Assembly: GCA_964016885.1 (NCBI GenBank)
Contig: OZ024740.1
Span: 62,992,001 to 63,056,000, forward strand
Direction of reading: 5' to 3'
Source: Eledone cirrhosa
Taxonomy: Eukaryota
Length of the DNA stretch: 64,000 nt
Under the pieces are notes generated by a model. The model was given only the letters and a program-made list of their open reading frames with translations, was not told the origin of the DNA and did no database searches. Shown piece after piece: positions 506 to 56,213 of the stretch. Within the stretch, counting starts at the first letter, position 1, and the number at the start of each line of letters is the position of its first letter. The translations under genes were made by a program, and so were the position numbers.

Positions 506-911
506 AATTTCTCGTTTTCAAGTTATCACAAGCACACACGCGGGTATACATATACGTAATTCTTATATACACATATAACAAGAGTAATTACGATTAACAG
601 ACATTTATATGATACTGTCAAACTTTCTTTAAGATATAAATCATAATGAAAATATCATAAGAAGCACATCAACCACAAATATGACAGATGAAAATGCATT
701 ATTCTAGTGTTTAAATTTCAGATATGAATCCGTTACTTATATTTAAATAACAGCCGTACTAAGAGTGGGAAATGAAATTTCGTTTCATTTTTTCCGTTTA
801 TCGTTTTCGGTGCACCCGGCCGATTAACCCACTCGATATGCAAATTGGGCTACTCAGCCGTTAATATGCATAAGGTAAGTATATACGTTCAACAATCTGG
901 CAGGAAGGTAT

Positions 912-954
912 ACGTTGCTGACGATAGCTAATAAGCTTGAAACTAGTACAGCGT
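912..954 (+). ncRNA. Minimal type-I hammerhead ribozyme
   Basis: acgttg-CTGACGA-tagct aata agctt-GAAA-ctag-TA-cagcgt: stem I, canonical core, stem II, palindromic ACTAGT stem III; predicted cleavage after 948. Confidence 0.88.
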
Positions 955-1335
955 TCCTTTGTCAGTGTTGAACAAACGAGCAACGATGGTTGCTAGACAC
1001 TACGGCTTAATACGGGATGTTTGTTTACAAACACACCGAGCATTATAATAAATGTTCGGTGAATCCATACGTACATATATATATGTGTGCATGTATGTAT
1101 ATATATATATATACATACTGCTGTACGTCTGTATACATATATGTATGTACGTGTACATACTTATATGTAAATATCAGCCGTACTAAGAGTGGGAAATTAA
1201 ATTTCGTTTCATTTTTTCCGTTTATCGTTTTCGGTGCACCCGGCCGATTAACCCACTCGATATGCAAATTGGGCTACTCAGCCGTTAATATGCATAAGGT
1301 AAGTATATACGTTCAACAATCTGGCAGGAAGGTAT

Positions 1336-1378
1336 ACGTTGCTGACGATAGCTAATAAGCTTGAAACTAGTACAGCGT
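1336..1378 (+). ncRNA. Minimal type-I hammerhead ribozyme (second tandem copy)
   Basis: Identical to 912-954, 424 nt downstream. Confidence 0.88.
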
Positions 1379-2759
1379 TCCTTTGTCAGTGTTGAACAAA
1401 CGAGCAACGATGGTTGCTAGACACTACGGCTTAATACGGGATGTTTGTTTACAAACACACCGAGCATTATAATAAATGTTCGGTGAATCCATACGTACAT
1501 ATATATGTATGCATGTATGTAGATATATATACATACTACTGTACGTCTGTATACATATATGTATGTACGTGTACATACTTATATTTAAGTAACAGCCGTA
1601 CTAAGAGTGGCAAATGAAATTTCGTTTCATTTTTTCCGTTTATATATATATATATATTAATAAAAGGAATTCCAACTTTGTCTGATTTACTCGTTTTATT
1701 TACAATGCTTTAACATTTATAATAGTATTAGAACGAAATAGTATGGTAGAATATTAAATGTCAAGTGTTAATTGAACAAGTACTTTCATGCTTTCGCAAT
1801 CTTCAGGTTCACATTCTGTGGTGACAGTCAAGTTTGCAATTTTCAACTGTCAGTTGAAAATATATATATATATTCTAACATTCTATTGTACAGCAATTCG
1901 GGACAGATTTTCTCTAATAACCGATTTTTTCACTCACTTGTTAATTTGTGTTTGACTTGAAATATGTTGGTGAGTCCTTATGTAGGGGCCGAAGAATAGA
2001 ATTTCGACTCCTACTATCACTTAAATTTCTGAACCAGTGGTCAATCGGTTGACGATATTTTGCTGACGTGTAAGGATTTACATGCATTGTTGCATAATAG
2101 ATGCAGACAATAGATGATGTTTGCTCTCTTGCTGAATTAAGTGTGGCCGAACGTGTGTTGTATTGATGCAATTATTTGTGTCTACTCTGGGAATTTTACA
2201 TAACCTTACCTATTGAGTATGCTGAGATGCAACCGGTAATAGCAGGGATAACTTATGCTAGTCCCGTCAACTTATTATTATCATTATCACTTTCGGTGGT
2301 TTTCTGCTAGCATGTGTAGTGTGCATATTGATATTATATGCACGTATATATGCATGTTGATATGATACATCAAATAAAATCGTAATTGACAATATACACA
2401 GAAATTGAACGAAGACTGCGTTACACTCTCTTATGTAATCAGTAACGTAATCCATGATACAGTAAAAAAAGACGATATTACATATAAACTGCATTAGGAG
2501 AAAATTAGTGACGAAAATATATGAATGTTTATTTAAGCGAGCGATCGCTAACCGGAAGTGTTGACATTTCAACATTTTTAAAGAATCTTTAAATAAACAA
2601 TAAAATATATTTAATCAACCACTACGAAATTTAGTAGATGAATTATGTAATATTCATTCATTATTTATTCAAAGTAATCCAACTAATTTTACTAATGGGA
2701 TAAAACATTATAAACCGTACGCAGTCCCGCACTCCTTACTTTCTTATAGTTTAGATATA

Positions 2760-4635: not shown

Positions 4636-4932
4636 CAAGGTAATTACCATTTTCTCAACTCTCACTTCCACAATACACAACAAACCCACACCACACGATA
4701 CAACCAACAACGTAGGCCACTTATAACACCACAATACAACATGGCACATAGAAACACACACCCATACTCGCAGTACAGGAACACCCCATTCAATCTACAA
4801 CCACCAACCCGAACCACATTTTACAACAACAAGGAATATAACAAGCACAGGAGACCACTTAACATCAGCAGACAACCCCTCTACCCCAACCATTTTTTAG
4901 ACACAGCACACAGATACAGGCAAACAAAATAA
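4636..4932 (+). CDS. Remnant of the upstream low-complexity PLE ORF (5'-truncated at the inverted pLTR junction)
   Basis: Frame of the 4741-4932 ORF is open from 4636 and overlaps the RT frame over 4842-4932. Confidence 0.5.
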   Translation, partial: QGNYHFLNSHFHNTQQTHTTRYNQQRRPLITPQYNMAHRNTHPYSQYRNTPFNLQPPTRTTFYNNKEYNKHRRPLNISRQPLYPNHFLDTAHRYRQTK

Positions 4933-5069
4933 CACAAGACAGGGAGGAGAAACCGATAGTAATAAAAATTATCAATCTTACTAGTGCAGAACCAACACCC
5001 AACCTTATCAACTTACTCTCCAAAGGTCTTAAATTCACACCGACCCCACTACGTCCTAACTACTATGAA

Positions 5070-7217
5070 ATGAAGGAAGACATCACAGACTTCTGTAGAA
5101 AGTTACGACTTAGTGAACAACTATTCGACCAGTACAATGAGGATGAATCATTAGCCAGAAATAGAAGCAATTACACCCCTTCAAAAGGTAGAAATAAAAT
5201 CCTGGACGAATTCTGTGAACACATCACAAACTTCCCTTACCAACACTTGCACAGACAAAAACACAAGCCAAACCTCAACAAGAAAGAATGGGAAGAATTA
5301 AATAGATTAAAAACCGACAGAACCATTACAATTAAAGAGGCTGATAAAGGGAGTACAGTAGTCCTAATGGAGACAGAATTCTATATCAACTTAGCGCTCT
5401 CCACTTTGGAAAACGAAACATACTACGAAAAGGCTGAACACTACAATCAACAGAAAATTATGAGAAACCTAAAAACTCTAATCAACCAATACAAAGAAGG
5501 ACTCACTAACAAGGAATTCAGCTTCATCACAGACTTCACAAGTAAATCCAGCCTTTTCTACGGTATCCCTAAAGTACATAAAAGCGAATCAATCAGTAAG
5601 GCATGCAAGGAAGCCACAGACATAGTCATCAATGTCCCCTCACCCAATGATCTCAAATTAAGACCTATAATAGCAGGCCCCGCTTGCGAAACGCACCGTC
5701 TTAGCAACTTCATTGATACCCTTCTCAAACCCTTCCTCAAGCACATCAAAAGCTATATAAGGGACGACCTAGATATGCTCAATCACCTCCCTAATATGCC
5801 ACTTTCTGAACAAACCCTACTAGTGACGTTCGATGTAGTCAACCTATACTCCAACATCCCCCACAACCTAGGAATAGAAGCTATCCAATTCTGGCTGGAT
5901 AACTTCCACAATGAACTCCCACAACGCATCAAAAAAGAATTCGTGATAGAGGGACTCAAATTTATCTTGGAGAACAATTACTTCGTTTTCAATAACAAAC
6001 CCTACAGGCAGAAATCTGGGACCGCTATGGGAACGAAAACAGCCCCTACGTATGCCAACCTAGTCATGGGATACCTGGAAATCACCCTCTACACTAAAGT
6101 CCTAAACAAATTTGGAAACACCCTCCACTTACACATTGAAAGGAACTGGAAGCGATATCTTGATGACTGCTTCATCCTTTGGCACGAAAACATCGAAAAA
6201 CTTAAAGAATTTCACACCCTTATAAATGGGCTCAACACAAATATTAACTTCACAATGGAATACAGCCATCAACAACTCCCCTTCCTCGACATCCTCATTA
6301 AGATCCATAACAAAAAAATAGAAACAGACATATACTACAAGCCCACAGACTCCAAGCAATACCTCCCCTTCAACTCTTGCCACCCTAGACACGTTAAAAT
6401 TAATATTCCCTACAACTTAGCCAAGAGAATCTGTACTATAGTCTCCAATAAAAACATCTGCTACTTACGGCTACAAGAACTAAAGGACACACTCATAGGC
6501 AGGGACTACCCTGCATCACTAATTGACAATGGAATCCAACGTGCCCTAAAACTCAGTACCCAGGACCTTAGACACCCTAAAGTAAATCAACCAAAACTAA
6601 AAGCTCTTCCATACATCTCCACACACAACCCCCTCAACAACGAGGCCTTTGACACCATCCTCCAGAACATCCCTGTATTGAAAAAGGACCATAGAATGAA
6701 CCAAATTCTACGAACACACGATATCATAAAAAGCAAAAGACAATCCAAGTCAATGAAAAACATCTTAACACATGCCAAAGTACTGCCAACCACAACAACG
6801 AAACCCACAGTAAAAAAATGCGATAGACCCAACTGTGGCATTTGCATCAACCTAATAGAGGGTTCGGAATTCTATTTCAAAGATGGACAACGTTTTATAG
6901 TAAAACACAATTTCACATGTGCATCGGAAAATTTAATATATGTATTAACTTGTTCAGGTTGTCGAGAACAATACATAGGCCAGACCAAAAACAGCCTCCG
7001 CCAACGCATGACTGTCCATAGATCCCAAATTAAAATACGGGAATACAGGAAAATACCACTGAGTGAACACATTGATACCTGCGCCGCCCAAAATCATCCC
7101 AACTTCAGAATCTTTCCCCTCTACAAATTTAAAGATAATGCCACCCACACCCAGCGCATCAGCAAGGAATCTTACTTCATTAACAAATACGGACCCCGTC
7201 TAAACACTTCTCCCTAA
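5070..7217 (+). CDS. PLE reverse transcriptase + Zn-finger linker + GIY-YIG endonuclease (frame open from 4842)
   Basis: GLKFTPTP upstream in frame; FYGIPKVHK, LRPII, TFDVVNLY, GTAMGTKTAPTYANL, RYLDD; CDRPNCGIC linker; NLIYVLTC..C..QYIGQT..LRQR..H. Confidence 0.95.
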   Translation: MKEDITDFCRKLRLSEQLFDQYNEDESLARNRSNYTPSKGRNKILDEFCEHITNFPYQHLHRQKHKPNLNKKEWEELNRLKTDRTITIKEADKGSTVVLMETEFYINLALSTLENETYYEKAEHYNQQKIMRNLKTLINQYKEGLTNKEFSFITDFTSKSSLFYGIPKVHKSESISKACKEATDIVINVPSPNDLKLRPIIAGPACETHRLSNFIDTLLKPFLKHIKSYIRDDLDMLNHLPNMPLSEQTLLVTFDVVNLYSNIPHNLGIEAIQFWLDNFHNELPQRIKKEFVIEGLKFILENNYFVFNNKPYRQKSGTAMGTKTAPTYANLVMGYLEITLYTKVLNKFGNTLHLHIERNWKRYLDDCFILWHENIEKLKEFHTLINGLNTNINFTMEYSHQQLPFLDILIKIHNKKIETDIYYKPTDSKQYLPFNSCHPRHVKINIPYNLAKRICTIVSNKNICYLRLQELKDTLIGRDYPASLIDNGIQRALKLSTQDLRHPKVNQPKLKALPYISTHNPLNNEAFDTILQNIPVLKKDHRMNQILRTHDIIKSKRQSKSMKNILTHAKVLPTTTTKPTVKKCDRPNCGICINLIEGSEFYFKDGQRFIVKHNFTCASENLIYVLTCSGCREQYIGQTKNSLRQRMTVHRSQIKIREYRKIPLSEHIDTCAAQNHPNFRIFPLYKFKDNATHTQRISKESYFINKYGPRLNTSP

Positions 7218-26820: not shown

Positions 26821-27551
26821 AGCATTAGTATGCATATAAATACACACATGTATACATATGTACATGTACTCAGCTTTTCAGACTAGCTGACACTCACTGT
26901 AAAGTGTCTAGTGAAAAGCTGAGTACATGTACATATGTATACATGTGTGTATTTATATGCATACTAATACTTCCGTATACATATGTAGATGTACACTTTA
27001 ACTTAATTGTTTAAGAGTCAGTCATACAAAAGTGAGTTAGAAGCGAAACGAAATTTAATTTCGTTTCGTTATTTGTTTTTATCGTTTCCGCTGAACCGGT
27101 GCGTACAATGACTCACGTTCTATGCAAATTAGTCTACCCACTACTAATTTTCATAGAAAAAGCATATAACGATATGTGCTTTTACAATTCTCCAGAGAAG
27201 CCGGAAGATGGGTAAATATTGCTGATGAGATGTAATAACATCGAAACTAGTCCAATATTCCTGTCTGGCCCTCTGGAGAATAGAGGAAATGTGTTTCCTT
27301 GAAAACTCGTATGACTCTAAAACCCGGTCCGCCTGTGTGGTTACATACAGACTAGCTGACACTCACTGTAAAGTGTCTAGTGAAAAGCTGAGTACATGTA
27401 CATATGTATACATGTGTGTATTTATATGCATACTAATACTTCCGTATACATATGTAGATGTACACTTTAACTTAATTGTTTAAGCGTCAGTCATACAAAA
27501 GTGAGTTAGAAGCGAAACGAAATTTAATTTCGTTTCGTTATTTGTTTTTAT
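26821..27551 (+). mobile_element. Retrozyme-like partial tandem repeat (469-bp period) with inverted 5' segment
   Basis: GACTAGCTGACACTCAC at 26881 and 27350; 26821-26880 is the reverse complement of 26912-26971; homologous to 736-1641 and 51468-52240. Confidence 0.85.
27215..27259 (+). ncRNA. Minimal type-I hammerhead ribozyme
   Basis: aatattg-CTGATGA-gatgt aata acatc-GAAA-ctag-TC-caatatt; all stems perfect; GUC cleavage after 27252. Confidence 0.92.
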
Positions 27552-28779
27552 ATATATATATATATATATGAAACTATTCGGAGTGGCTTGATTCGCCCCA
27601 GGGGCCCGGCGCGCAGCCGTTTTTTTGACCGCCATGTAGTACCTTTAAATTACAGATCAAATCAGAACTATTAGATATATCACGCCTCCATCTACTTAAG
27701 CAAATCCCCCCCCCCCCCTGGGTAAAGGAATAGTACTGGTTTTGTACAAGAATGGCCTAACGATGCGGGCTGAATTCCTGCTGGCGCACCAGAAGCCTGT
27801 TATACATTCCTAGAGTGCTTGGAAAAATCGATTTTCATATCTTTCGCTAGCCGATATCACTCGGAGTGATAGGCTGCCCAAGCTTGTAGTCGCCGCATGC
27901 TGTTTGACGGCTAAACAAAGACATAATCTTTACTCTATAATAAAATTTAAGTGTCTTCATAAAAGACTCTCTATTTGCTTAAACCTCGCAACCTTAAAAA
28001 TGTTAAATTGTTTAACTTTAAATTTTCTAATTTCTCTAATTTTATAATGTTAATATTAAATATTAATTTTTTAACTTCATCCTATAAGTCTAAACATAAA
28101 TGTAACGTTCCAATCTTCTGCTCACACATTATAACACACTGACCCCCAGTATATTTAAATAAAAGAAACATATATTTACCTCTGCTAAGATACGAGTCCC
28201 TTTGAAAATATTTTTTTCGCGCCATTCCTGGCCTGACTGTAGTCTGACATTAATATCGATCTTTCTTTCTATCTTCCTTCTTGTAGCCATCAACCCTGAC
28301 TTTTCTTCTTCCTTTTCTTCCTTCCCTTCTCCCTTCTTTCTGTCTTTCTCCTTGTAGCATGATATTAACGCTGACTTATCTTCCTTCCCCTTTTTGTTTG
28401 CCTATATTTGACTGGTAATAGTTAAGATACGGGTCCCTTAGAATAAACATTTTTTTCGCGACATTCCTGGCCTGACTTTAATACCGACCTTTCCTCCTCT
28501 TTCTTTCTGTCTTTCTTCTTATAGCTGACATTAACCCTGGCTTCTCTTCTTCTTCCTTCCCCCTTCTTCTCTCTTCTTTCTTTCTTTCTTTTTTCTTCTG
28601 GCATGATATTAACGCTTTCTGTTTTCCTTTATTTGACCGGTAGTAGCACACTGTAAGATTTAGCAACGTCACTCGAGGGCGACCGGCAAAGGTAGAAGAT
28701 GCTGGATGGCGGTCGCCCTTGGGTCTTTGATTTTCAGCCCCATGGAATTTATCTATTACATTCACTTATTATATTTCGA

Positions 28780-29930: not shown

Positions 29931-31216
29931 TTACAGTTTGTTCAAAAGAATGCTTTTGATAACAACATTCTTAGTCGACTGGGTGTCTTTCAGAAACACT
30001 CGGACATTTTCTTTTCGTTTTCCGCGGGTAAGGGCAACATAGAGTTGACCGTGTTGGAATACAGGTCGTTCCAGATAAACTAACACATTTTCCATAGTTT
30101 GTCCTTGTGCTTTATGAATAGTCATAGCGACGCACGATTGAACTGGGAATTGGCTTCGCTGCAAAGGGATATCCTCACCTTCGGATAGATTAATTCTTAT
30201 TCTAGGTATCATAACAATCTCATTTCTGAAAGCAGCAGTGTTGATTCTTGCTACTATGAGATGTCGTGCAGTTCTTCCACGATCATGCGCGTTCCATTAC
30301 AAAGCCTTGGAGGATTCAAGTTTCTCATTAGAATTATTGGTGATCCTATTTTCAATTCCAGGTTATGTGGTGGCAGTCCTGATAGTTCAACCGAATCAAG
30401 GAATTCAGTTGGGAAATAAGTGGCATTGGCACCATCACTCACAGAATTATAGGATCGGTACTCTTTTATGGTTCCAGGGAAGCGTCTGATACAGGTGGAA
30501 TTGATGCTTCTCATCATTTCATTGAGAGGTACTAAGATGCAATTGTTCGAAAACATTTCAGTTGGATTGTCGAATGAGGGGTAGATGAAATCAATGCATT
30601 CTTCCATAGTTGTTGCTTGGAGAATCATTTCTTTTGGAAAAATAATTTCCGCATTTTCATTTTTTGGGATCTTATCTTCTCCAATATCCAATAGGAACTC
30701 TGAATAGTCTCCTGCTCCCCCACACAATCGCATGTTTGTCTTCAAATGAAATTTTTTAAAGCTTCGCCATAAGTAGGATTTTTTAATGCAGGCATTTTCC
30801 ACATCTGCTTCATTTCCTCTTTTCACTACCGGAAGAAGCTGACGGAAATCTCCACAGCAAATTGTCAAAATTCCACCGAATGCCTCATTGTTGTCGCATA
30901 TGTCACGCAGAGTAAGGTCAACAGCTTCGAAGCTTTCCCTCCGAATCATAGGACACTCGTCCCAAACAATCAGCCTTGTATGCTGGAATAGGTTTGTCGT
31001 CTTTGAGTTTTTATCAATGTTGCACAGACCATTTTCTTTCACTGCTATTGGTATTTTGAACCTAGAATGCGCCGTTTTTCCACCAGACATCAGTGTTGCC
31101 GCAATGCCAGATGACGCAACAGCAATAGCCACATCGCCGTTTCCCCTAACTTTTGAAAGGATTAAGTTAAGCAAGAATGTCTTTCCTGTTCCACCTGGAG
31201 CGTCAATGAAAATCAA
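29931..31216 (-). CDS. Helitron Pif1-like SF1B helicase segment (split into ORFs 30254-31216 and 29931-30212)
   Basis: DAPGGTGKT; IVWDECPM; GDFRQLLPV; MRNLNP.RLCNGTR; TIHKAQGQT; HGQLYVALTR. Confidence 0.93.
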
Positions 31217-33119
31217 TGCAAATGTTCCTCTCTAAACTGTTACAAATGAAGTCGTACACATGTTTTTGGTCACTATTCAATAAAGGTTCCCTTTCTTCTA
31301 CAAATTGTCGCTGTTCTTCTTTGTTGTATTGCAATTCATGCAATAACTCCAAATTGCCAATATCCTGATTAGCGACAATATTATTTGGCATTGGCAAGTT
31401 AAAGTCACTAAGACTTTTGCCCAGGTTGTTAAGTTTGTCTTCAAAATACAGAAGACATTGTTCATAATGTCTCTCGCTAATCAAAAATTTAGAGTTTCTT
31501 GTAGCTCTTTTTTCTATCTGAAGGTAATCCTCAGACAGCGAATTCTTAAATCGAGCCCATAAAGCATTGGAATTGTCAATTTCCGTATTTGTGAGGAGCA
31601 CGATGAATAGATCTCTCATGGCTTTGGGAAGCCTTGTTCGCTCAGCATCTTCCAGAGTCTGCTGCCAATGATCATCTGATTGAAGCAAACCTTTCTCTCT
31701 GCAAACGTCTTTGAATAATGGCAGGAGTTCTCCATCACACATTTTCAAAAAGTTGAAAGATACTGGTCCTTTGACGTGATGCAGAAGGAGTCTTAAATAA
31801 TATAGGTCACCACTTCGTGGGGAAACGGTGTACACTCGTCCCAAAACGTTCGCCTCAAAAATTCCTGGATACTGCTCAACTGTTTTCCCCACCTTCCTCC
31901 TTTCCCATCTCTTATTATTCCATGTGTAAAACTTTGGTACGTCGGCATAATACAATGTTTTTGCAAACGGATCGCGAGTGCAAAGATCCATGAACTCAGT
32001 CAGAGTTGTCTTAGCCATGTTATTGTTTACTTTAACAGCAGCATTGACCCGAAAGAAGATTTGATTTTTCTCAGGTAGATGAACTTGAAGGCGAACTACG
32101 GCCGGTTCTCTCTCATGAATTGGAAATCCAAGTACCGAGGCAACAGCTTCTGAAGGACCGATATATCTTCCTGTTAAATACTGTGTTATCTCATCTTCCC
32201 TGTTCACTCCAAACATTGCCTGATCACTGCCCTTCATGGTATATTTTATAACGTATTTGATCGATTTCACGGAAGAGCACATCTCTACGTTTAGGTGGCA
32301 GTTGAACAGTTTTAATAGTTTCATATTGTAGGGAACCACCCATTCTGAAGTTATATTTTGGCTTTCCATTCTTTCTTGGTGCCCTTCAAATCCTCCCATT
32401 TCAGGAGACCGTCTTCTGTACACAGGATAAGAGTCCCCTCCACACAATGTATGTTCAACAAAAGGCTTAGGGTACCGCTTACTGCATGTTCCATCTTTCC
32501 AACACGGTGAATTGTTAGAGCAATTCGGACCATGGATCATGTGCTTCAGCACCAATTTATGACCCTCTGGATCTTTGTTTGGATCTGGTATTTCGGCTTG
32601 AACGAATTTATCATATTCCTGTGGTCTGGGCTTGGTGGCTTCATTGAGCCATAACAAACAGTGCACATGAGGAAGACCTCGCTTTTGATATTCGACTGTC
32701 AGCACGTAATCAATGCAGTTGCCAAATAAGCCATCTACTCCAGTAAGATGCTTTCTGAACAGTTTCCGTTTCAGGTCAAATACTCTGGCAATTAAATCTG
32801 GCCTGTCGTGTGGCTTCTGATTCAGGAATAGGTTTTGCCGGATTTCGGGCCAGTTTGGATTGCATGTCATTGTGATGAACAACGAAGCATCTCCGTACTT
32901 CCGTATGTACATCATGGCATCCTGGCATCGCTCCATCATATATCTCGGTCCACCAACAAATGTAGAATAGAGTATGATTCGTCTGCCGATGTTGCGAAAA
33001 TCGTCATCATCATTCAATGCATCAGTAAGGCCCGTGTATGTTGTAGATCGCAATGATGTTTGATTCATTTGGATGTATCTCAGCCTATCTCCTTGAATCT
33101 TTGCAGCCATGTCAACCAA
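31203..33119 (-). CDS. Helitron Rep (HUH endonuclease) segment, frameshifted relative to its neighbours
   Basis: LFITMTCNPNW; EYQKRGLPHVHCLL (HUH); KYVIKYTMKG (Y2 motif). Confidence 0.93.
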   Translation of the reverse strand: MVDMAAKIQGDRLRYIQMNQTSLRSTTYTGLTDALNDDDDFRNIGRRIILYSTFVGGPRYMMERCQDAMMYIRKYGDASLFITMTCNPNWPEIRQNLFLNQKPHDRPDLIARVFDLKRKLFRKHLTGVDGLFGNCIDYVLTVEYQKRGLPHVHCLLWLNEATKPRPQEYDKFVQAEIPDPNKDPEGHKLVLKHMIHGPNCSNNSPCWKDGTCSKRYPKPFVEHTLCGGDSYPVYRRRSPEMGGFEGHQERMESQNITSEWVVPYNMKLLKLFNCHLNVEMCSSVKSIKYVIKYTMKGSDQAMFGVNREDEITQYLTGRYIGPSEAVASVLGFPIHEREPAVVRLQVHLPEKNQIFFRVNAAVKVNNNMAKTTLTEFMDLCTRDPFAKTLYYADVPKFYTWNNKRWERRKVGKTVEQYPGIFEANVLGRVYTVSPRSGDLYYLRLLLHHVKGPVSFNFLKMCDGELLPLFKDVCREKGLLQSDDHWQQTLEDAERTRLPKAMRDLFIVLLTNTEIDNSNALWARFKNSLSEDYLQIEKRATRNSKFLISERHYEQCLLYFEDKLNNLGKSLSDFNLPMPNNIVANQDIGNLELLHELQYNKEEQRQFVEEREPLLNSDQKHVYDFICNSLERNICIDFH

Positions 33120-33168
33120 ATATTGCTGAAATAAACGACCACCTCTGAGAAGTTGGTTGAATTCATTC

Positions 33169-34635
33169 TCAATGGTTCATTATTCGATAGGCATAGTAGC
33201 GCATCGGTGTCAATTTCTTGATGTTGCTCATTAACAGCTCATGATGCCATCCATCATCGCCAAAAGGAAAAAATAGAACATACTGCAAACTATCATAGGA
33301 CCGATGGGACTCTGAGATTATTTTCAGTTGTCCGCCTTTTTCTTTCAACGCGATGTGCCGTGCTTTTGATTGAAGTTCGGTGCTGTTTTGTATAATAACA
33401 GCAACTTCATTTTCAGTTTGTGCATTGAATCTTCTGTCATGTTTCATTGCTGATCTCCTATCAGGATCAATAATAATCGAAGCTTCAGGAATATTTTTAA
33501 TTTGTTCTTTTGCCAGTTGAAATGACGCAACATAAGGGTTATATTGTCTCAGTATAATTTCTAATAATTCAACTATGTCGCGCTGAATGCCATCGTTATG
33601 GAGTATCCTGATCCTTAAATCAACACTATCCTGAGGATCCAAGAAGTAAATTTGAAGAAATTTGGGTTGTTCATTGGGATTAGGAGTTAAGGAACCGATG
33701 TAATGATGAATTTGACCATGAATAACAATAGAAGGATTCCATCCACTCCTTGAGGAACGAACTTCTTTGGCCCCAAAAGATGTCATTTGGAATAAGCAGT
33801 TGTATTGTCTGAGGTTCTTCCTGAACTCGTTTGCTCTAGGTTGATCTGTACTAAATAAATTTTGAAGTTCTTGGGGTAAAGGCTGCAGATTCCCTAGCCT
33901 GACTTTTCCATTTATACAGCAAAAGTTAGCAGTTTCACCATGAAAAAGCATTGCATGGCAACAGACACAGATCTTATTCATTTGTCCAACATCAGCAGAG
34001 AGGTCACGTCGTTGAACTGTCTTTGCTCTATCCTTCTGTTCCACCAGACGTGCAGCTTTCTGAGCATTCGATTCCTGATCTTTCTTTCTTCTGTTTCTTT
34101 CCCTCTGTTCTGCCAGACGTGCAGCTTTCTGAGCATCCGATTCCTGATCTCTCTTTCTTCTGTTTATTTCCCTCTGTTCCGCCAGACGTGCAGCTCCCCG
34201 AGCCTCCGATTCCTGATCTCTCCTGCTTCTGTCTCTTTCTCCCTGTTCTGCCAGACGTGCAGCTCTCCGAGCCTCCGATTCCTGATCTCTCCTGCTTCTG
34301 TCTCTTTCTCCCTGTTCTGCCAGACGTGCAGCTCTCCGAGCCTCCGATTCCTGATCTCTCCTGCTTCTGTCTCTTTCTCCCTGTTCTGCCAGACGTGCAG
34401 CTCTCCGAGCCTCCGATTCCTGATCTCTCCTGCTTCTGTCTCTTTCTCTCTGTTCCACCAGACGTGCAGCTCTTGCTTTATCAGTCTCATCGATCCTTCT
34501 CTTCGCATGCCTGTCCTGGTCTTGTTGTTGGCATTGACCACTATCTTGCTCACCTTCTTCGGCTTTCCTTAGCCGCACTCTCTTCCCATTATCTGTAGTC
34601 GAACCAGATGTTTTCTTTCTTCCTCGTTGAGGCAT
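33169..34635 (-). CDS. Helitron RepHel N-terminal segment (STPR-like 23-aa repeats, Cys-rich Zn finger)
   Basis: Seven 69-bp repeats (RRDQESEARRAARLAEQGERDRS); C..C.A.LF.GE...CC..GKV; R.YN..F.MTSFG; YD.LQY.LFFP.G..GW. Confidence 0.9.
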   Translation of the reverse strand: MPQRGRKKTSGSTTDNGKRVRLRKAEEGEQDSGQCQQQDQDRHAKRRIDETDKARAARLVEQRERDRSRRDQESEARRAARLAEQGERDRSRRDQESEARRAARLAEQGERDRSRRDQESEARRAARLAEQGERDRSRRDQESEARGAARLAEQREINRRKRDQESDAQKAARLAEQRERNRRKKDQESNAQKAARLVEQKDRAKTVQRRDLSADVGQMNKICVCCHAMLFHGETANFCCINGKVRLGNLQPLPQELQNLFSTDQPRANEFRKNLRQYNCLFQMTSFGAKEVRSSRSGWNPSIVIHGQIHHYIGSLTPNPNEQPKFLQIYFLDPQDSVDLRIRILHNDGIQRDIVELLEIILRQYNPYVASFQLAKEQIKNIPEASIIIDPDRRSAMKHDRRFNAQTENEVAVIIQNSTELQSKARHIALKEKGGQLKIISESHRSYDSLQYVLFFPFGDDGWHHELLMSNIKKLTPMRYYAYRIMNH

Positions 34636-35389
34636 GATTTAAGAATAGAAAATCGTATTCACCTGACAAAAATTTCTTATTACCTCAAAAATTATTTTTC
34701 TTAAATTATCAATTTAAAATATTTCTAAATAATGAAAATATTGTCTGTTTAAAGAAAGCTAAATATAAATATTTACTCTACAAACGATTCGTATTTTTCA
34801 AATCACATTCACTTATAAAATACTTTTTGATAATTAAAAAAAAAAATTAGCGTATTCACTTGTAAATAGTTTTAAAAACAATTAAAATATTATCTGTGCA
34901 AAGAAGGCTAAAATATAAACACTTAGAGTGTGAACAACTTTTGGAAATCACATTCACTTAAAAATATTTCTAAATAATTAAAATATTTTGTTTAACAAAA
35001 GCAAAAATATTTACTGTAAAAGCAACTCGTATTTTTCAGTCATATTCACTGAACAGTTTTAATTTTAATAATTACAATATCGTCTGTTTAGTGAAAGCTG
35101 AAATATAGATACTTAAAAGTACAAAGAAGTTGTAATGTTGAAATCATATTCACTGAGAAATCACTGAAATTGGTGTATGTAATGATTATGAAAAATATTT
35201 TTTGCATAATGAAAATATTTATTTAATATTTACGCCAAAATTGTTTTATCCCCTTTGTATTCCAATTACGGAATATTTTCCCATTATGCACCGTTTTGGC
35301 TATTTACGAAGGTAGAGATAGAGTGTGCAAGCAAACAAACAAACAATCAAGATCAAAGTTGGGTCACCGATATTTCAAAGTACCCGAGA

Positions 35390-36270
35390 AATATATATAT
35401 TGCCTGTACAGATAATCAAAGTGTGTATACATTTTTCGGGGACATCATATATATATATATATACCGGGGTCCCTAAAAATGTATACACTATTCTAATATA
35501 TATATTGCCCGTACAGGTAATCAAAGTGTGTATACATTTTTCAGGGACACCATATATATATATACCGGGGTCCCTAAAAATGTATACACCATTCTAATAT
35601 ATATATTGCCTGTACAGATAATCAAAGTGTGTATACATTTTTCGGGGACACCATATATATATATACCTGGGTCCTGAAAAATGTATACACCATTCTAATA
35701 TATATATTGGTTGTACAGAAAATCAAAGTGTGTATACATTTTTCCGGGACACCATATATTTATATATATATACTGGGGTCCCTAAAAATGTATACACCAT
35801 TCTAATATATATATTGGCTGTACAGGTAATCAAAGTGTGTATACATTTTTCGGGGACATCATATATATATACCGGGGTCCCTAAAAATGTATACACCATT
35901 CTAATATATATATTGCCTGTACAGGTAATCAAAGTGTGTATACATTTTTCGGGGACACCATATATATATATATATACCGGGGTCCCTAAAAATGTATACA
36001 CCATTCTAATATATATATTGCCTGTACAGGTAATCAAAGTGTGTATACATTTTTCGGGGACACCATATATATATATACCGGGGTCCCTAAAAATGTATAC
36101 ACCATTCTAATATATATATTGGCTGTACAGGTAATCAAAGTGTGTATACATTTTTCGGGGACACCATATATATATATACCGGGGTCCCTAAAATGTATAC
36201 ACCATCCTAACAAATAATGCATGTATAGGCAATCAAAGTGGGTATACATTTTTTGGGGGACAACCTGTAT
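35390..36270. repeat. Minisatellite of 8.5 units (99-107 bp), each a MITE-like inverted-repeat unit separated by (TA)n
   Basis: CCGGGGTCCCTAAAAATGTATACAC (or close variant) starts at 35464, 35565, 35666, 35773, 35872, 35977, 36078 and 36179. Confidence 0.92.
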
Positions 36271-36416
36271 ATACACAAATATGAACATATATATAAAGAG
36301 AAAGTGTGTGCAAGCAAGCAAGCAGACATCGAGATCAGAGTTCTAGTAGTATATAGATTGCTTCAGTTTTCATAATCGACATTCGTGTTATTTCCACCCC
36401 CAAATATTTATAAGTA

Positions 36417-44234: not shown

Positions 44235-44299
44235 TATTTCATTATACATATTTCAGGGATACCAAATTAAATTATGGTATGCCTTCATCAGACAAAATA
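44235..44299 (-). ncRNA. Type-I HHR (family with 56149, 57219, 62045)
   Basis: Reverse strand: tattttgt-CTGATGA-aggcatacca..tggtatccct-GAAA-tatgta-TA-atgaaata. Confidence 0.75.
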
Positions 44300-48250: not shown

Positions 48251-48378
48251 ATATATATATATATATATAAATTTCAGGTTATCAATAATGTAGTGATAAT
48301 ATATCGTTACGTTAGAGATGAACAGCGTGCGTGTAGGTTTGCTCAACGAGTATAAATTATATTCCGGAGAAAATGTAG

Positions 48379-51362
48379 AAAAGATGAATATAAAATGAAA
48401 GTGCTTTTTTTAAAAAGGAATTTATTAGGTATTGACATATGTTTCTGTAACAGACGGAATACCTATGTATCGCTGCTTGCGTAATCCTATAATGTTAGCA
48501 AGTATTCGATAGCAAATGTATAATCAGTTGTCACTTCTTCAGATATTTTGGATAAATTGGATAAAATCAGAAAAATTGAAGTATTTATATTAGTAATAGA
48601 GGAAGAAGAGAGGGGATAGTATATGACAGATGGTAATTCAATTTACTGCTAAACAAGTATATAAAGGGTTTCTAATGAGAATACCATGAGTAAATGGTTC
48701 ATTTTATCTAAATAAGAATTTTTGGGAGTGCCAATTTTAATCTCTACTTGACCAATTGAACAGTGGACAGGGCTGGTCATTTGGTGTAGTAGTATTAATT
48801 ATAAAGTGTCAATTGGGGAAGGGGGAAATTTCGATTGCTACTGAATAACATTAATGCTAGTAGCCAGCTGGTATGTGCATTAGGGAATTGAAATTGTTAA
48901 AAAACTTTGTATTGACGATAGAACGCAACCCTTAACACCAGCTATACCATCCTTCAACCTGAAGGACCTCAAGGTAAACTTCGATACTAACTTAGACTTA
49001 TATGCCCCTCTAAATCTGATATAGGCAAAATTAGCAAATATATACTAGACAGAATTATCCCCCAAGTTAAGGTTAAAGTAGAAATTTAACTATGGGGTAA
49101 CACTCATGAAGCAATAAGATGGTTTAATAACATTACTGATAAGAAAAATTCAAAATTTATTCAGTTTGATATTGATGAATATTATTCCTCAATTTCCCCT
49201 GATACTCTACATGAAGCTCTTTCGTTCGCTAAGGCTAATTCCGACCTTACGGGTGCTGAAATTAAAATTATTATGGAAGCGAAGAAAACTATAGTTAAAT
49301 TCGATGATAGCTACTGGGTTCACAAAGATAGACCTTCTAATTTTGATATTACTATGGGTTCTAATGATTCGGCGGAAGTAACAGATCTTGTGGGAATTTA
49401 TATCACCCACAGACTACAAGGAAAATTCAAGGATCTCCACGGTGGAATCTACCGTGATGATGCGCTCCTATTAGTTAAGCATATGAATAACCAGAATTTA
49501 GAAAGGATGCGTAAAAATATCAGAAAGCTTTTTAAGGAACTAGGATTAAATATTACATTTGAATATAACCTCAAAGAGGTCAATTTCCTTGATGTTACTT
49601 TGAATCTCAATACAGATACGATTAAACCGTTCCATAAACTAAATGAGAACCTTAAATATGTAAATACGAGTTCTAACCATCCACTCTCTATAATTAAATC
49701 CATCCCTAGAAATGTTTCTCTTAGAATCTCCCGCCTGTCGTCCAACCAACAAACCTTCAAAGAACATGCCGAATATTATGATGATGCACTTAGAAAAGCC
49801 GGACACCTAGATAATATAGAGTATATAGTCGAAGATCACCAAAACACCCAAAATAAATCCCATAGGAGTAGAAATAGCACAGAATCACCACCATACATAC
49901 ACTACCGCAATAGACACAATAATAGTCGCACACCACCAAACAGAAGGCTATGTAAAGAGTATATTTGGTACAACCCGGTCTATAACAACTCTATTAAAAC
50001 CAATCTACCCTCACAATTCTTTCGATTAGTTAAAAAACACTTTCCAACATCACATAAATATAATAAAATCTTAAACCCTAACACTATTCGACTCTCATAT
50101 TCAACCGCCCCTAATATTGAACAACATATAAAAAAGCTTAACGCAAAACGGTTGTATAAACGCCTTCCAACACAAAACAATACACGTAAAACATTAGCTA
50201 TAACATCACAAAACAACAAACAATATCCTATCCTACCTAAACAACCTCATCAACCCATCCAGGACAATACAACAACGCAAAATTATAATTGTAACTGTGT
50301 CCAACCAGGAATGTGTCCGTTGAACAATCAGTGTCTTGAACGCAAGATCATATACAAATGTACTATCGAATCGGATAGACAGAAGTGGTACTATGTGGGA
50401 TCTACAGCCACCTCCTTCAAATCACGCCTTTATAGACATCGTTACTCGATAAAACATGAAAACCAGCGTTATGTAACAACACTCGCAGACAAGGCTTGGC
50501 AGCTGCATGAAAATAACCAACAATTTCACCTTAAATGGGATATAATAGTGACTGCTCCCCCATATCCCACGGACAGGAATTTTGTAAATTATGTAATGTA
50601 GAATTATTTTGTATTATGAAATCCAAAAACATTTTATTAAATAACAGAATAGAGCGATCGTTATACTGTAACCATCGCTTAAAATCTACATTCTCATATT
50701 ATAAATACCACCAGGATTGAACGCCCGCCTCTATCTCCGTTTGGTTGTCAAAATAGATATTAACATTCTCTATTAGTCTTAATTCTATCAACTCTTCTAT
50801 TATTTACCATTTAATATAAACTGCTATAGATAAAATGAGATTTCTGATTTCTTAATTCAATTCCCTAATGCACATACCAGCTGGCTACTAGCATTGATGT
50901 TATTCAGTAGCAATCGAAATCTCCCCCTTCCCCAATTGACACTTTATAATTAATACTACTACACCAAATGACCAGCCCTGTCCACTGTTCAATTGGTCAA
51001 GTAGAGATTAAAATTGGCACTCCCAAAAATTCTTATTTAGATAAAATGAACCATTTACTCATGGTATTCTCATTAGAAACCCTTTATATACTTGTTTAGC
51101 AGTAAATTGAATTACCATCTGTCATATACTATCCCCTCTCTTCTTCCTCTATTACTAATATAAATACTTCAATTTTTCTGATTTTATCCAATTTATCCAA
51201 AATCTCTGAATAAGTGACCACTGATTATACATTTGCTATCGAATACTTGCTAACATTATATGATTACGCAAGCAGCGATACATAGGTATTCCGTCTGTTA
51301 CAGAAACATATGTCAATACCTAATAAATTCCTTTTTAAAAAAAGCACTTTCATTTTATATTC

Positions 51363-51369
<7 letters not shown>
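48379..51369 (+). mobile_element. Naiad-like PLE, 5'-truncated, flanked by 514-bp inverted pseudo-LTRs
   Basis: 48379-48892 is the reverse complement of 50856-51369; decayed ORF ~48900-50720. Confidence 0.92.
49273..50720 (+). pseudogene. Naiad-like RT + GIY-YIG (frameshift near 50570; upstream stops)
   Basis: FDITMGSNDSAEVTDLVG; YRDDAL; NFLDVTL; SNHP; IWYNP; CNCVQPGMCPLNNQC; IIYKC..YYVGST; CKLCNVE. Confidence 0.9.
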
Positions 51370-51467: not shown

Positions 51468-52417
<950 letters not shown>

Positions 52418-56148: not shown

Positions 56149-56213
56149 TATTTTATCTGATGAAAGCACACGATAATTTAACTTGATGTCCTTGAAATAT
56201 GTATAATGAAATA
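56149..56213 (+). ncRNA. Type-I HHR
   Basis: tattttat-CTGATGA-aagcac..gtcctt-GAAA-tatgta-TA-atgaaata. Confidence 0.72.

Follow-up and report, generated by a model that had tools for sequence, protein, structure and literature searches.

Four copies of the octamer ATGCAAAT stand upstream of hammerhead ribozymes in this stretch of Eledone cirrhosa DNA. Do they belong to a promoter that the ribozyme repeat carries with it and, if so, which RNA polymerase would use it? The original prediction proposed an snRNA-type promoter built into a mobile ribozyme unit. Conservation of the motif and its match to host promoters support this proposal, while its description of the octamer as a distal element has to be given up. 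In the window (the whole stretch analysed, 64,000 nt) we found a tandem hammerhead repeat with a U6/MRP/tRNA-Sec/U3-type 12-mer and a TATA box. With a probability of roughly 0.65, these make up an snRNA-type promoter belonging to the repeat and probably used by RNA polymerase II (pol II); the case for such a promoter is that the same 12-mer and TATA precede the host U6 and U3 genes.

The hammerhead repeat in the window and the genome

The octamer occurs where it was predicted, at 838, 1262, 27122 and 51879, each time within TATGCAAATT[AG]G. Also as predicted, a TATA-like word follows, 42 nt after the first octamer base in locus 1 (TATATA, 880 and 1304) and 41 nt after it in loci 2 and 3 (CATATAA, 27163 and 51920). 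The hammerhead core lies 80 nt (918, 1342) or 100 nt (27222, 51979) after the octamer, near the 75-95 nt originally given. AATTTCGTTTC does precede every octamer named above (at 776, 1200, 27057 and 51820) but was not seen upstream of the octamer in the older families E and F. The bare octamer is present 10 times in the window against 6.0 expected, a number attained by 10 of 100 shuffles and thus not above chance; the exact 12-mer, with 1 match per 349,910 background positions outside elements, is not a chance occurrence. The loci are homologous and diverged, as had been noted, although they represent two subfamilies instead of three distinct types: loci 2 and 3 share 87% identity over 414 nt and form family B, and locus 1 (family A) is 71% identical to locus 2 over 367 aligned nt. 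Only locus 1 combines the promoter with two co-directional hammerheads. The features are listed here by coordinates and strand.

734..1643, +, locus 1, family A, 2.2 tandem copies of a 424-bp unit, ending in (TA)n
776..786, +, AATTTCGTTTC, 3' arm of a small hairpin 12-16 nt before the common insertion end
837..848, +, TATGCAAATTGG, candidate upstream promoter 12-mer (host consensus TATGCAAATKAG), also a hairpin 5' arm
854..858, +, TCAGC, 26 nt before TATA, the place of YCAGY in host pol II snRNA genes (23-29 nt before TATA)
862..872, +, 3' arm pairing with the 12-mer, variable between families and lacking compensatory change
880..887, +, TATA box TATATACG, 42 nt past the octamer, predicted start ~910
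913..953, +, type I hammerhead 1 with core at 918-948, stem I formed by 913-917 and 949-953, and ACTAGT as palindromic stem III, cleavage predicted after 948 (GUA)
949..1372, +, predicted 424-nt monomer from cleavage site to cleavage site, holding promoter copy 2
1261..1311, +, promoter copy 2, 12-mer 1261-1272, TATA 1304
1342..1372, +, hammerhead 2 core
1618..1643, +, arm of the terminal hairpin, and the common 3' end ('End1') with (TA)n adjoining
26821..27552, +, locus 2, family B, 12-mer 27121-27132, CATATAA 27163, hammerhead 27222-27252 (GUC), End1 at ~27552, short inverted piece on the 5' side
51468..51830, -, locus 3, inverted copy of family B, 5'-truncated and lacking the promoter, hammerhead at 51767-51797, (TA)n adjoining End1
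51815..52240, +, locus 3, family B copy in forward orientation, 12-mer at 51878-51889, CATATAA 51920, hammerhead 51979-52009 (GUU), End2 joined to (TA)n

All window loci have the hammerhead core pattern CTGAYGA-N14-GAAAC-TA-GTH. An Rfam scan at the gathering score returned no hammerhead match, and the call is instead made from the intact core bases and from covariation, with double-sided changes in 8 of 12 pairs among six representatives and a score that none of 500 shuffles attained. Across the 3.0-Gb genome we counted 39,091 exact cores of the form TGCTGAYGA-N14-GAAACTAGT (reversed control, 0) and 29,940 occurrences of the promoter-side 22-mer. Units are 424-500 bp long and tandem, with one type I hammerhead each, and one long array (L343) has 15 hammerheads at 469-bp spacing. 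The only open frames overlapping units are of low complexity. Folded as a circle, the cleavage-to-cleavage monomer gave z = -8.0 (A) and -10.8 (B) against 40 shuffles, values inflated by the inverted repeats. Tandem hammerhead units, lack of protein coding and a highly self-paired monomer are features of non-LTR retrozymes, the class to which we assign the element by its sequence, with Penelope-like hallmarks.

A search with a loosened hammerhead pattern, in which 60 loci and then 39 of 40 more were inspected, recovered the older families E and F and single copies of C and D, whose stems differ and whose motif lies 87-105 nt upstream. Many of the remaining loci proved to be chance matches or belonged to families that lack the motif. 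A further 16,154 matches are dominated by family K (310 bp), which lacks the octamer, and the motif is therefore not required for the retrozyme lifestyle. Family K is a hammerhead tandem repeat with head-to-head arrays (L145-L174; G000 C1 at 1.24 Mb and 5.39 Mb). It was considered as a carrier of a pol II snRNA promoter (AAACCAGT, 27 nt, TATAAG) and rejected, as 7.3 bits, at a background fraction of 1e-3 with ~150 positions scanned, is not significant.

Other repeats were seen in the window. A short repeat flanked by (TA)n, whose hammerhead-like core is degenerate (CTGATGA, long stem II, GAAATAT/GAAACATGTA), occurs at 56157 and 57227 (+) and at 44291 (-). Judged by eye, open frames at 30257-34638 (-) resemble pieces of Helitron Rep/helicase, and 34035-34473 holds a tandem repeat of 69 bp; a 101-bp tandem array of internally inverted arrangement occupies 35390-36273.

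Host small-RNA promoters and the probable promoter of the repeat

[quoted passage not shown] There it reads TATG[CG][AT]AATKAG, with TATA at -30/-31 and a spacing of 46-48, at three unrelated U6 loci, U6atac, MRP and two tRNA-Sec genes. All four U3 promoter types have TATGTAAA[AT]TA[AG] at -71 to -74 and a spacing of 40-42. Host loci that are likely retrocopies or disrupted were left out of these counts, namely U6 loci lacking the motif (2 of 20) or with an insertion between motif and gene (6 more), 5 of 6 U6atac, 2 of 4 tRNA-Sec and 3 of 7 extra U3 stretches (start not found). None of 19 pol II spliceosomal snRNA promoters has the 12-mer (18 scanned at up to 2 mismatches, U4atac by eye). Sixteen of the 19 have YCAGY at -55 to -58, the exceptions being U11 (twice) and U4atac, and in host pol II snRNA genes YCAGY precedes TATA by 23-29 nt. 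In the promoters of 7SK and RNase P, TCAGT lies 32-33 nt before TATA and the octamer is missing; neither motif occurs in that of SRP.

Comparison of the octamer-to-TATA segment with host promoters thus gave a match to the U6/U3 class, though not to U1 and 7SK, which are without the motif. In the vertebrate-type arrangement, a distal octamer and a separate PSE are about 200-250 nt apart, with the octamer upstream; the element is not built in this way, its motif being 41-42 nt from TATA. The motif stands at PSE distance in U6, U6atac, MRP, tRNA-Sec and U3 and is absent from U1, U2, U4, U5, U11, U12 and U4atac. Because it lies at -71 to -79 in host genes and 41-42 nt from TATA in the element, the octamer is by position the proximal element of one class of small-RNA genes in this genome. 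The PSE that the original prediction could not find would then be the octamer motif itself, and the repeat would hold no separate one.

Several observations concern the host genes themselves. The RNase P (L080) and 7SK (L290) genes end in T-runs yet have the TCAGT of U1/U2 type, at 32-33 rather than 23-29 nt from TATA, which suggests a choice of polymerase by spacing. In insects, the distance from the upstream element to TATA is kept to within 1-2 bp, and which polymerase is used depends on small differences in the element (PMC1761439). The U3 genes (L242-L250) have a CRE-like ACGTCAT after the octamer-like motif, and they share AATGTAC, at about -52, with U4atac. In the U6 array on C19 (L037, L038, L040-L043), 6 of 16 copies read have a ~190-bp repeat between upstream element and gene. 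Paralogues of SNAPc were considered as the cause of the two host motifs and set aside, since only one SNAPC3 locus was found.

The repeat has the upstream element common to host small-RNA genes, and its arrangement of 12-mer and TATA resembles that of U3 and the type-3 genes (U6, U6atac, MRP, tRNA-Sec), where TATA lies at about -30. Of 66 segments, 54 contain a TATA word and 12 have none; in 52 of the 54 the octamer-to-TATA distance is 41-42. The distance from TATA to hammerhead ranges from 38 to 59, and indels fall downstream of TATA and not between motif and TATA. A spacing of 41-42 matches that of U3 (40-42) and is 5-6 nt below that of all seven pol III genes (46-48), which makes pol II the likely polymerase. 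Scoring models were built solely from host genes; in the U3 geometry, whose 40-43 window was chosen after the element had been seen, the three window representatives reached 20-21 bits, above all 150,466 background positions, compared with 3-5 bits in the pol III geometry. Two of three family F representatives score better in the pol III geometry. The best-scoring host promoter was U3 C15 for six of eight element representatives and U6 C9 for the two B copies.

At finer resolution the signals are mixed. Families A, E and F have TCAGY (TCAGC or TCAGT) 16 nt past the octamer start and 25-27 nt before TATA, while family B has CCACT in place of a good YCAGY and a weaker TATA (CATATAA). At octamer position 4 the element has C, as in pol III genes, where U3 has T; host U3 genes have ATGTAAAT or ATGTAAAA instead of the element's octamer, at the element-like spacing. 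T/G variation at one position of the 12-mer is common to elements and host genes. Host promoters mostly lack the paired 3' arm seen in the element. The best 3' box in the units scores 2.7 bits against 14-20 in host genes. In families A and B, runs of T5-T6 precede the next hammerhead. The T-run at the insertion end was rejected as a pol III terminator, since the end lies beyond it in family A and the run is absent in L011 and L138.

Conservation of the motif and competing readings

Conservation of the octamer against its flanks was checked in family A and B copies picked by hammerhead alone, counting those units with homologous sequence on both sides (35 of 58 A, 12 of 19 B). In family A, TATGCAAAT has 7/315 mismatches (2.2%) and the flanks 190/2411 (7.9%), giving a Fisher P of 7e-5 that overstates independence because element copies are related. 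This agrees with the prediction that the octamer is the more conserved. The family B octamer has 0/108 mismatches (0%) against 40/828 (4.8%) in its flanks. Polymorphic columns in family A number 0/9 in the octamer and 0/7 in TATA, compared with 10/39, 4/30, 10/40 and 20/60 around them. The exact 12-mer is present in 66 of 103 distinct hammerhead contexts of A and B, while 19 show nothing within 2 mismatches of it. Across families A, B, E and F, identity of the 12-mer is 83-100% in representatives drawn from copies whose octamer is exact; for A-F, B-E and B-F, identity is at shuffle level in the 60 nt upstream and in the 100 nt after the hammerhead.

The motif is also an RNA hairpin arm, a feature overlooked in the original prediction. 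Every family keeps a hairpin whose 5' arm is the 12-mer, with 82% of cells paired, and for this reason RNA structure may add part of the motif's conservation. None of 15 hairpin pairs has a change on both sides; the octamer side is fixed and the partner side varies, leaving mismatches. This freezing of one side, with no compensatory change, argues for constraint on the sequence of the 12-mer.

Could the hairpin alone explain the motif? On that account the 12-mer is kept as RNA, for circle stability or binding of a Penelope protein, its likeness to promoters is a relic or chance, and the repeat is transcribed by read-through. The energy of the hairpin ranges from -3 to -12 kcal/mol among representatives of A, B, E and F, where host promoters generally fold more weakly (-2 to -7), the whole monomer is highly paired, and the family B TATA word likewise lies within a hairpin. 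Selection on pairing does not, however, sit easily with the 0/15 double-sided changes, so unlike the covarying hammerhead stems, nor with a motif-to-TATA spacing that stays fixed while indels gather downstream, nor with T/G variation that is the same as in host genes, and we judge this account improbable. More remote still, at very long odds, is a rolling-circle DNA element (Helitron/HINE-like) or plain satellite with hammerhead and octamer as passengers. It would fit the subterminal hairpin and the long tandem arrays such as L343, but the covarying hammerhead, the inverted 5'-truncated copies, the (TA)n targets and the two alternative 3' ends all speak against it.

The closest competitor keeps the same element and gives it a type-3 pol III promoter, full monomers arising through read-through of weak T-runs. 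The 12-mer is letter for letter the U6/MRP/tRNA-Sec element, and family B aligns best to U6 C9 and to tRNA-Sec. Families A and B fall outside the type-3 spacing of 46-48, lying 5-6 nt short of every pol III gene, whereas two old F copies fit it. TCAGY stands at the pol II position in A, E and F, and the T5-T6 runs ahead of the next hammerhead, together with an insertion-end T-run that is not conserved, count against pol III. U3 is itself an uncertain guide. Its polymerase is pol II in humans and yeast, is treated as pol II in lepidopterans and is pol III in plants (PMC7277114, PMC11892584); here no clear 3' box is seen in the U3 genes, one of which ends in T7, and U3 may thus be a pol III gene, as in plants (PMC7277114). 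The schistosome hammerhead satellite is another case of pol III (PMC2220036). Taken together we regard a pol III promoter as unlikely, and pol II is slightly favoured over it by the spacing, TCAGY and internal T5-T6 runs.

Insertion, proposed inheritance and comparison with known systems

An inverted copy is present at 22 of 64 loci, and 44 of the 64 terminate at one or other of two fixed points, with (TA)n coming next. Nine loci have one end type per strand, and the long end was never found on both. Penelope-like insertions are described with an inverted 5'-truncated copy, a (TA)n bias and extension of one end (PMC8557442). The anatomy of the repeat's insertions is like that of Penelope-like elements and their pseudo-LTRs, although the repeat itself has no ORF; the Penelope promoter, in the published account, is internal and overlaps an intron, where that of the repeat would consist of an upstream 12-mer and TATA (PMC8557442).

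Two Penelope-like elements were observed in the window. The one at 4863-7214 (+) has a 784-aa open frame with RVT_1 and, at its C-terminus, GIY-YIG; its family is very young, as the last 172 aa are 100% identical at >130 genome places. The other, at 48270-51368, has a 503-aa frame (49090-50598) without a Pfam match, an inverted 5' copy and (TA)n ends, and locus 3 lies inside its terminal (TA)n. At 25 loci of each of the two families, the octamer was found after the ORF in 0 of 50 and a loose hammerhead-like match in 1 of 50.

For a repeat with its own pol II promoter, we infer the following cycle. Transcription would start ~30 nt after TATA, at ~910 in family A and ~27193 in family B, with 39 and 60 nt respectively left to the first cleavage site, and would read on through the next unit because the units lack an snRNA 3' box. 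Two successive hammerheads would release a 424-500 nt monomer, at locus 1 the segment 949-1372, which would be ligated into a circle. In other retrozymes circles are closed by RtcB, the host tRNA ligase (PMC7229834). A Penelope-like reverse transcriptase/endonuclease could then copy the circle into (TA)n sites, beginning at a fixed point that lies, in circle coordinates, ~40 nt upstream of the promoter, and continuing across the junction. A promoter external to its own transcript would still be inherited, since the monomer contains the next unit's promoter, and long copies would regain promoter and hammerhead because integration starts upstream of the promoter and crosses the junction. The promoter is thus likely passed to new copies through circular RNA, a simple answer to how an upstream promoter survives retrotransposition.

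A wider reading, which we hold only tentatively and at rather less than even odds, is that a retrozyme superfamily captured a host U3-type promoter and kept it under selection in circular RNA across at least four diverged families. The ~30,000 intact promoter copies exceed the real small-RNA genes by orders of magnitude. The repeat offers a mapped and mutable candidate promoter with a predicted start site, and the host comparison gives a first sketch of the U6, U3 and U1/U2 promoter rules for this genome, of use for guide-RNA or shRNA vectors in the lineage. In the openly accessible literature searched, we found no description of this repeat family, of a mollusc retrozyme promoter or of these host promoter rules.

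The non-LTR retrozymes of animals (Cervera and de la Pena 2020, PMC7229834; Li, Clavereau, Pollet, bioRxiv 10.64898/2026.07.22.740005) are likewise non-coding tandem units with one type I hammerhead each, with highly paired predicted circles and Penelope-like elements alongside. Units here are 424-500 bp, compared with 170-400 nt as published and up to 972 in the bioRxiv report (10.64898/2026.07.22.740005). A candidate host small-RNA promoter is located within the unit here, whereas the published non-LTR retrozymes come without a named promoter: in the accessible text of PMC7229834 the word is used for T7 alone (2 occurrences), and that of bioRxiv 10.64898/2026.07.22.740005 names none. The word 'promoter' is likewise absent from PMC6155905 and PMC2837043. 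Animal retrozymes are abundantly transcribed, and the newt and schistosome precedents are old single cases.

The newt satellite 2 promoter reportedly contains an octamer, and the schistosome Sm-alpha promoter is said to have A and B boxes, as opposed to the upstream 12-mer and TATA here. As proposed for our repeat, the Sm-alpha hammerhead satellite has a promoter of its own, but for pol III (PMC2220036). Promoter-bearing hammerhead repeats already have a precedent in newt satellite 2, described with an snRNA promoter for pol II (Coats, Zhang, Epstein 1994, as cited in PMC2220036). It is, like our repeat, a hammerhead tandem repeat with a palindromic short stem III, and its snRNA-type promoter is internal, as proposed here (PMC2220036). 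The present case differs in lineage and in that the motif is the genome's own proximal element, with TATA at U3-like spacing. Should the newt satellite represent the same solution, promoters of the snRNA type would be the general engine of animal retrozyme transcription.
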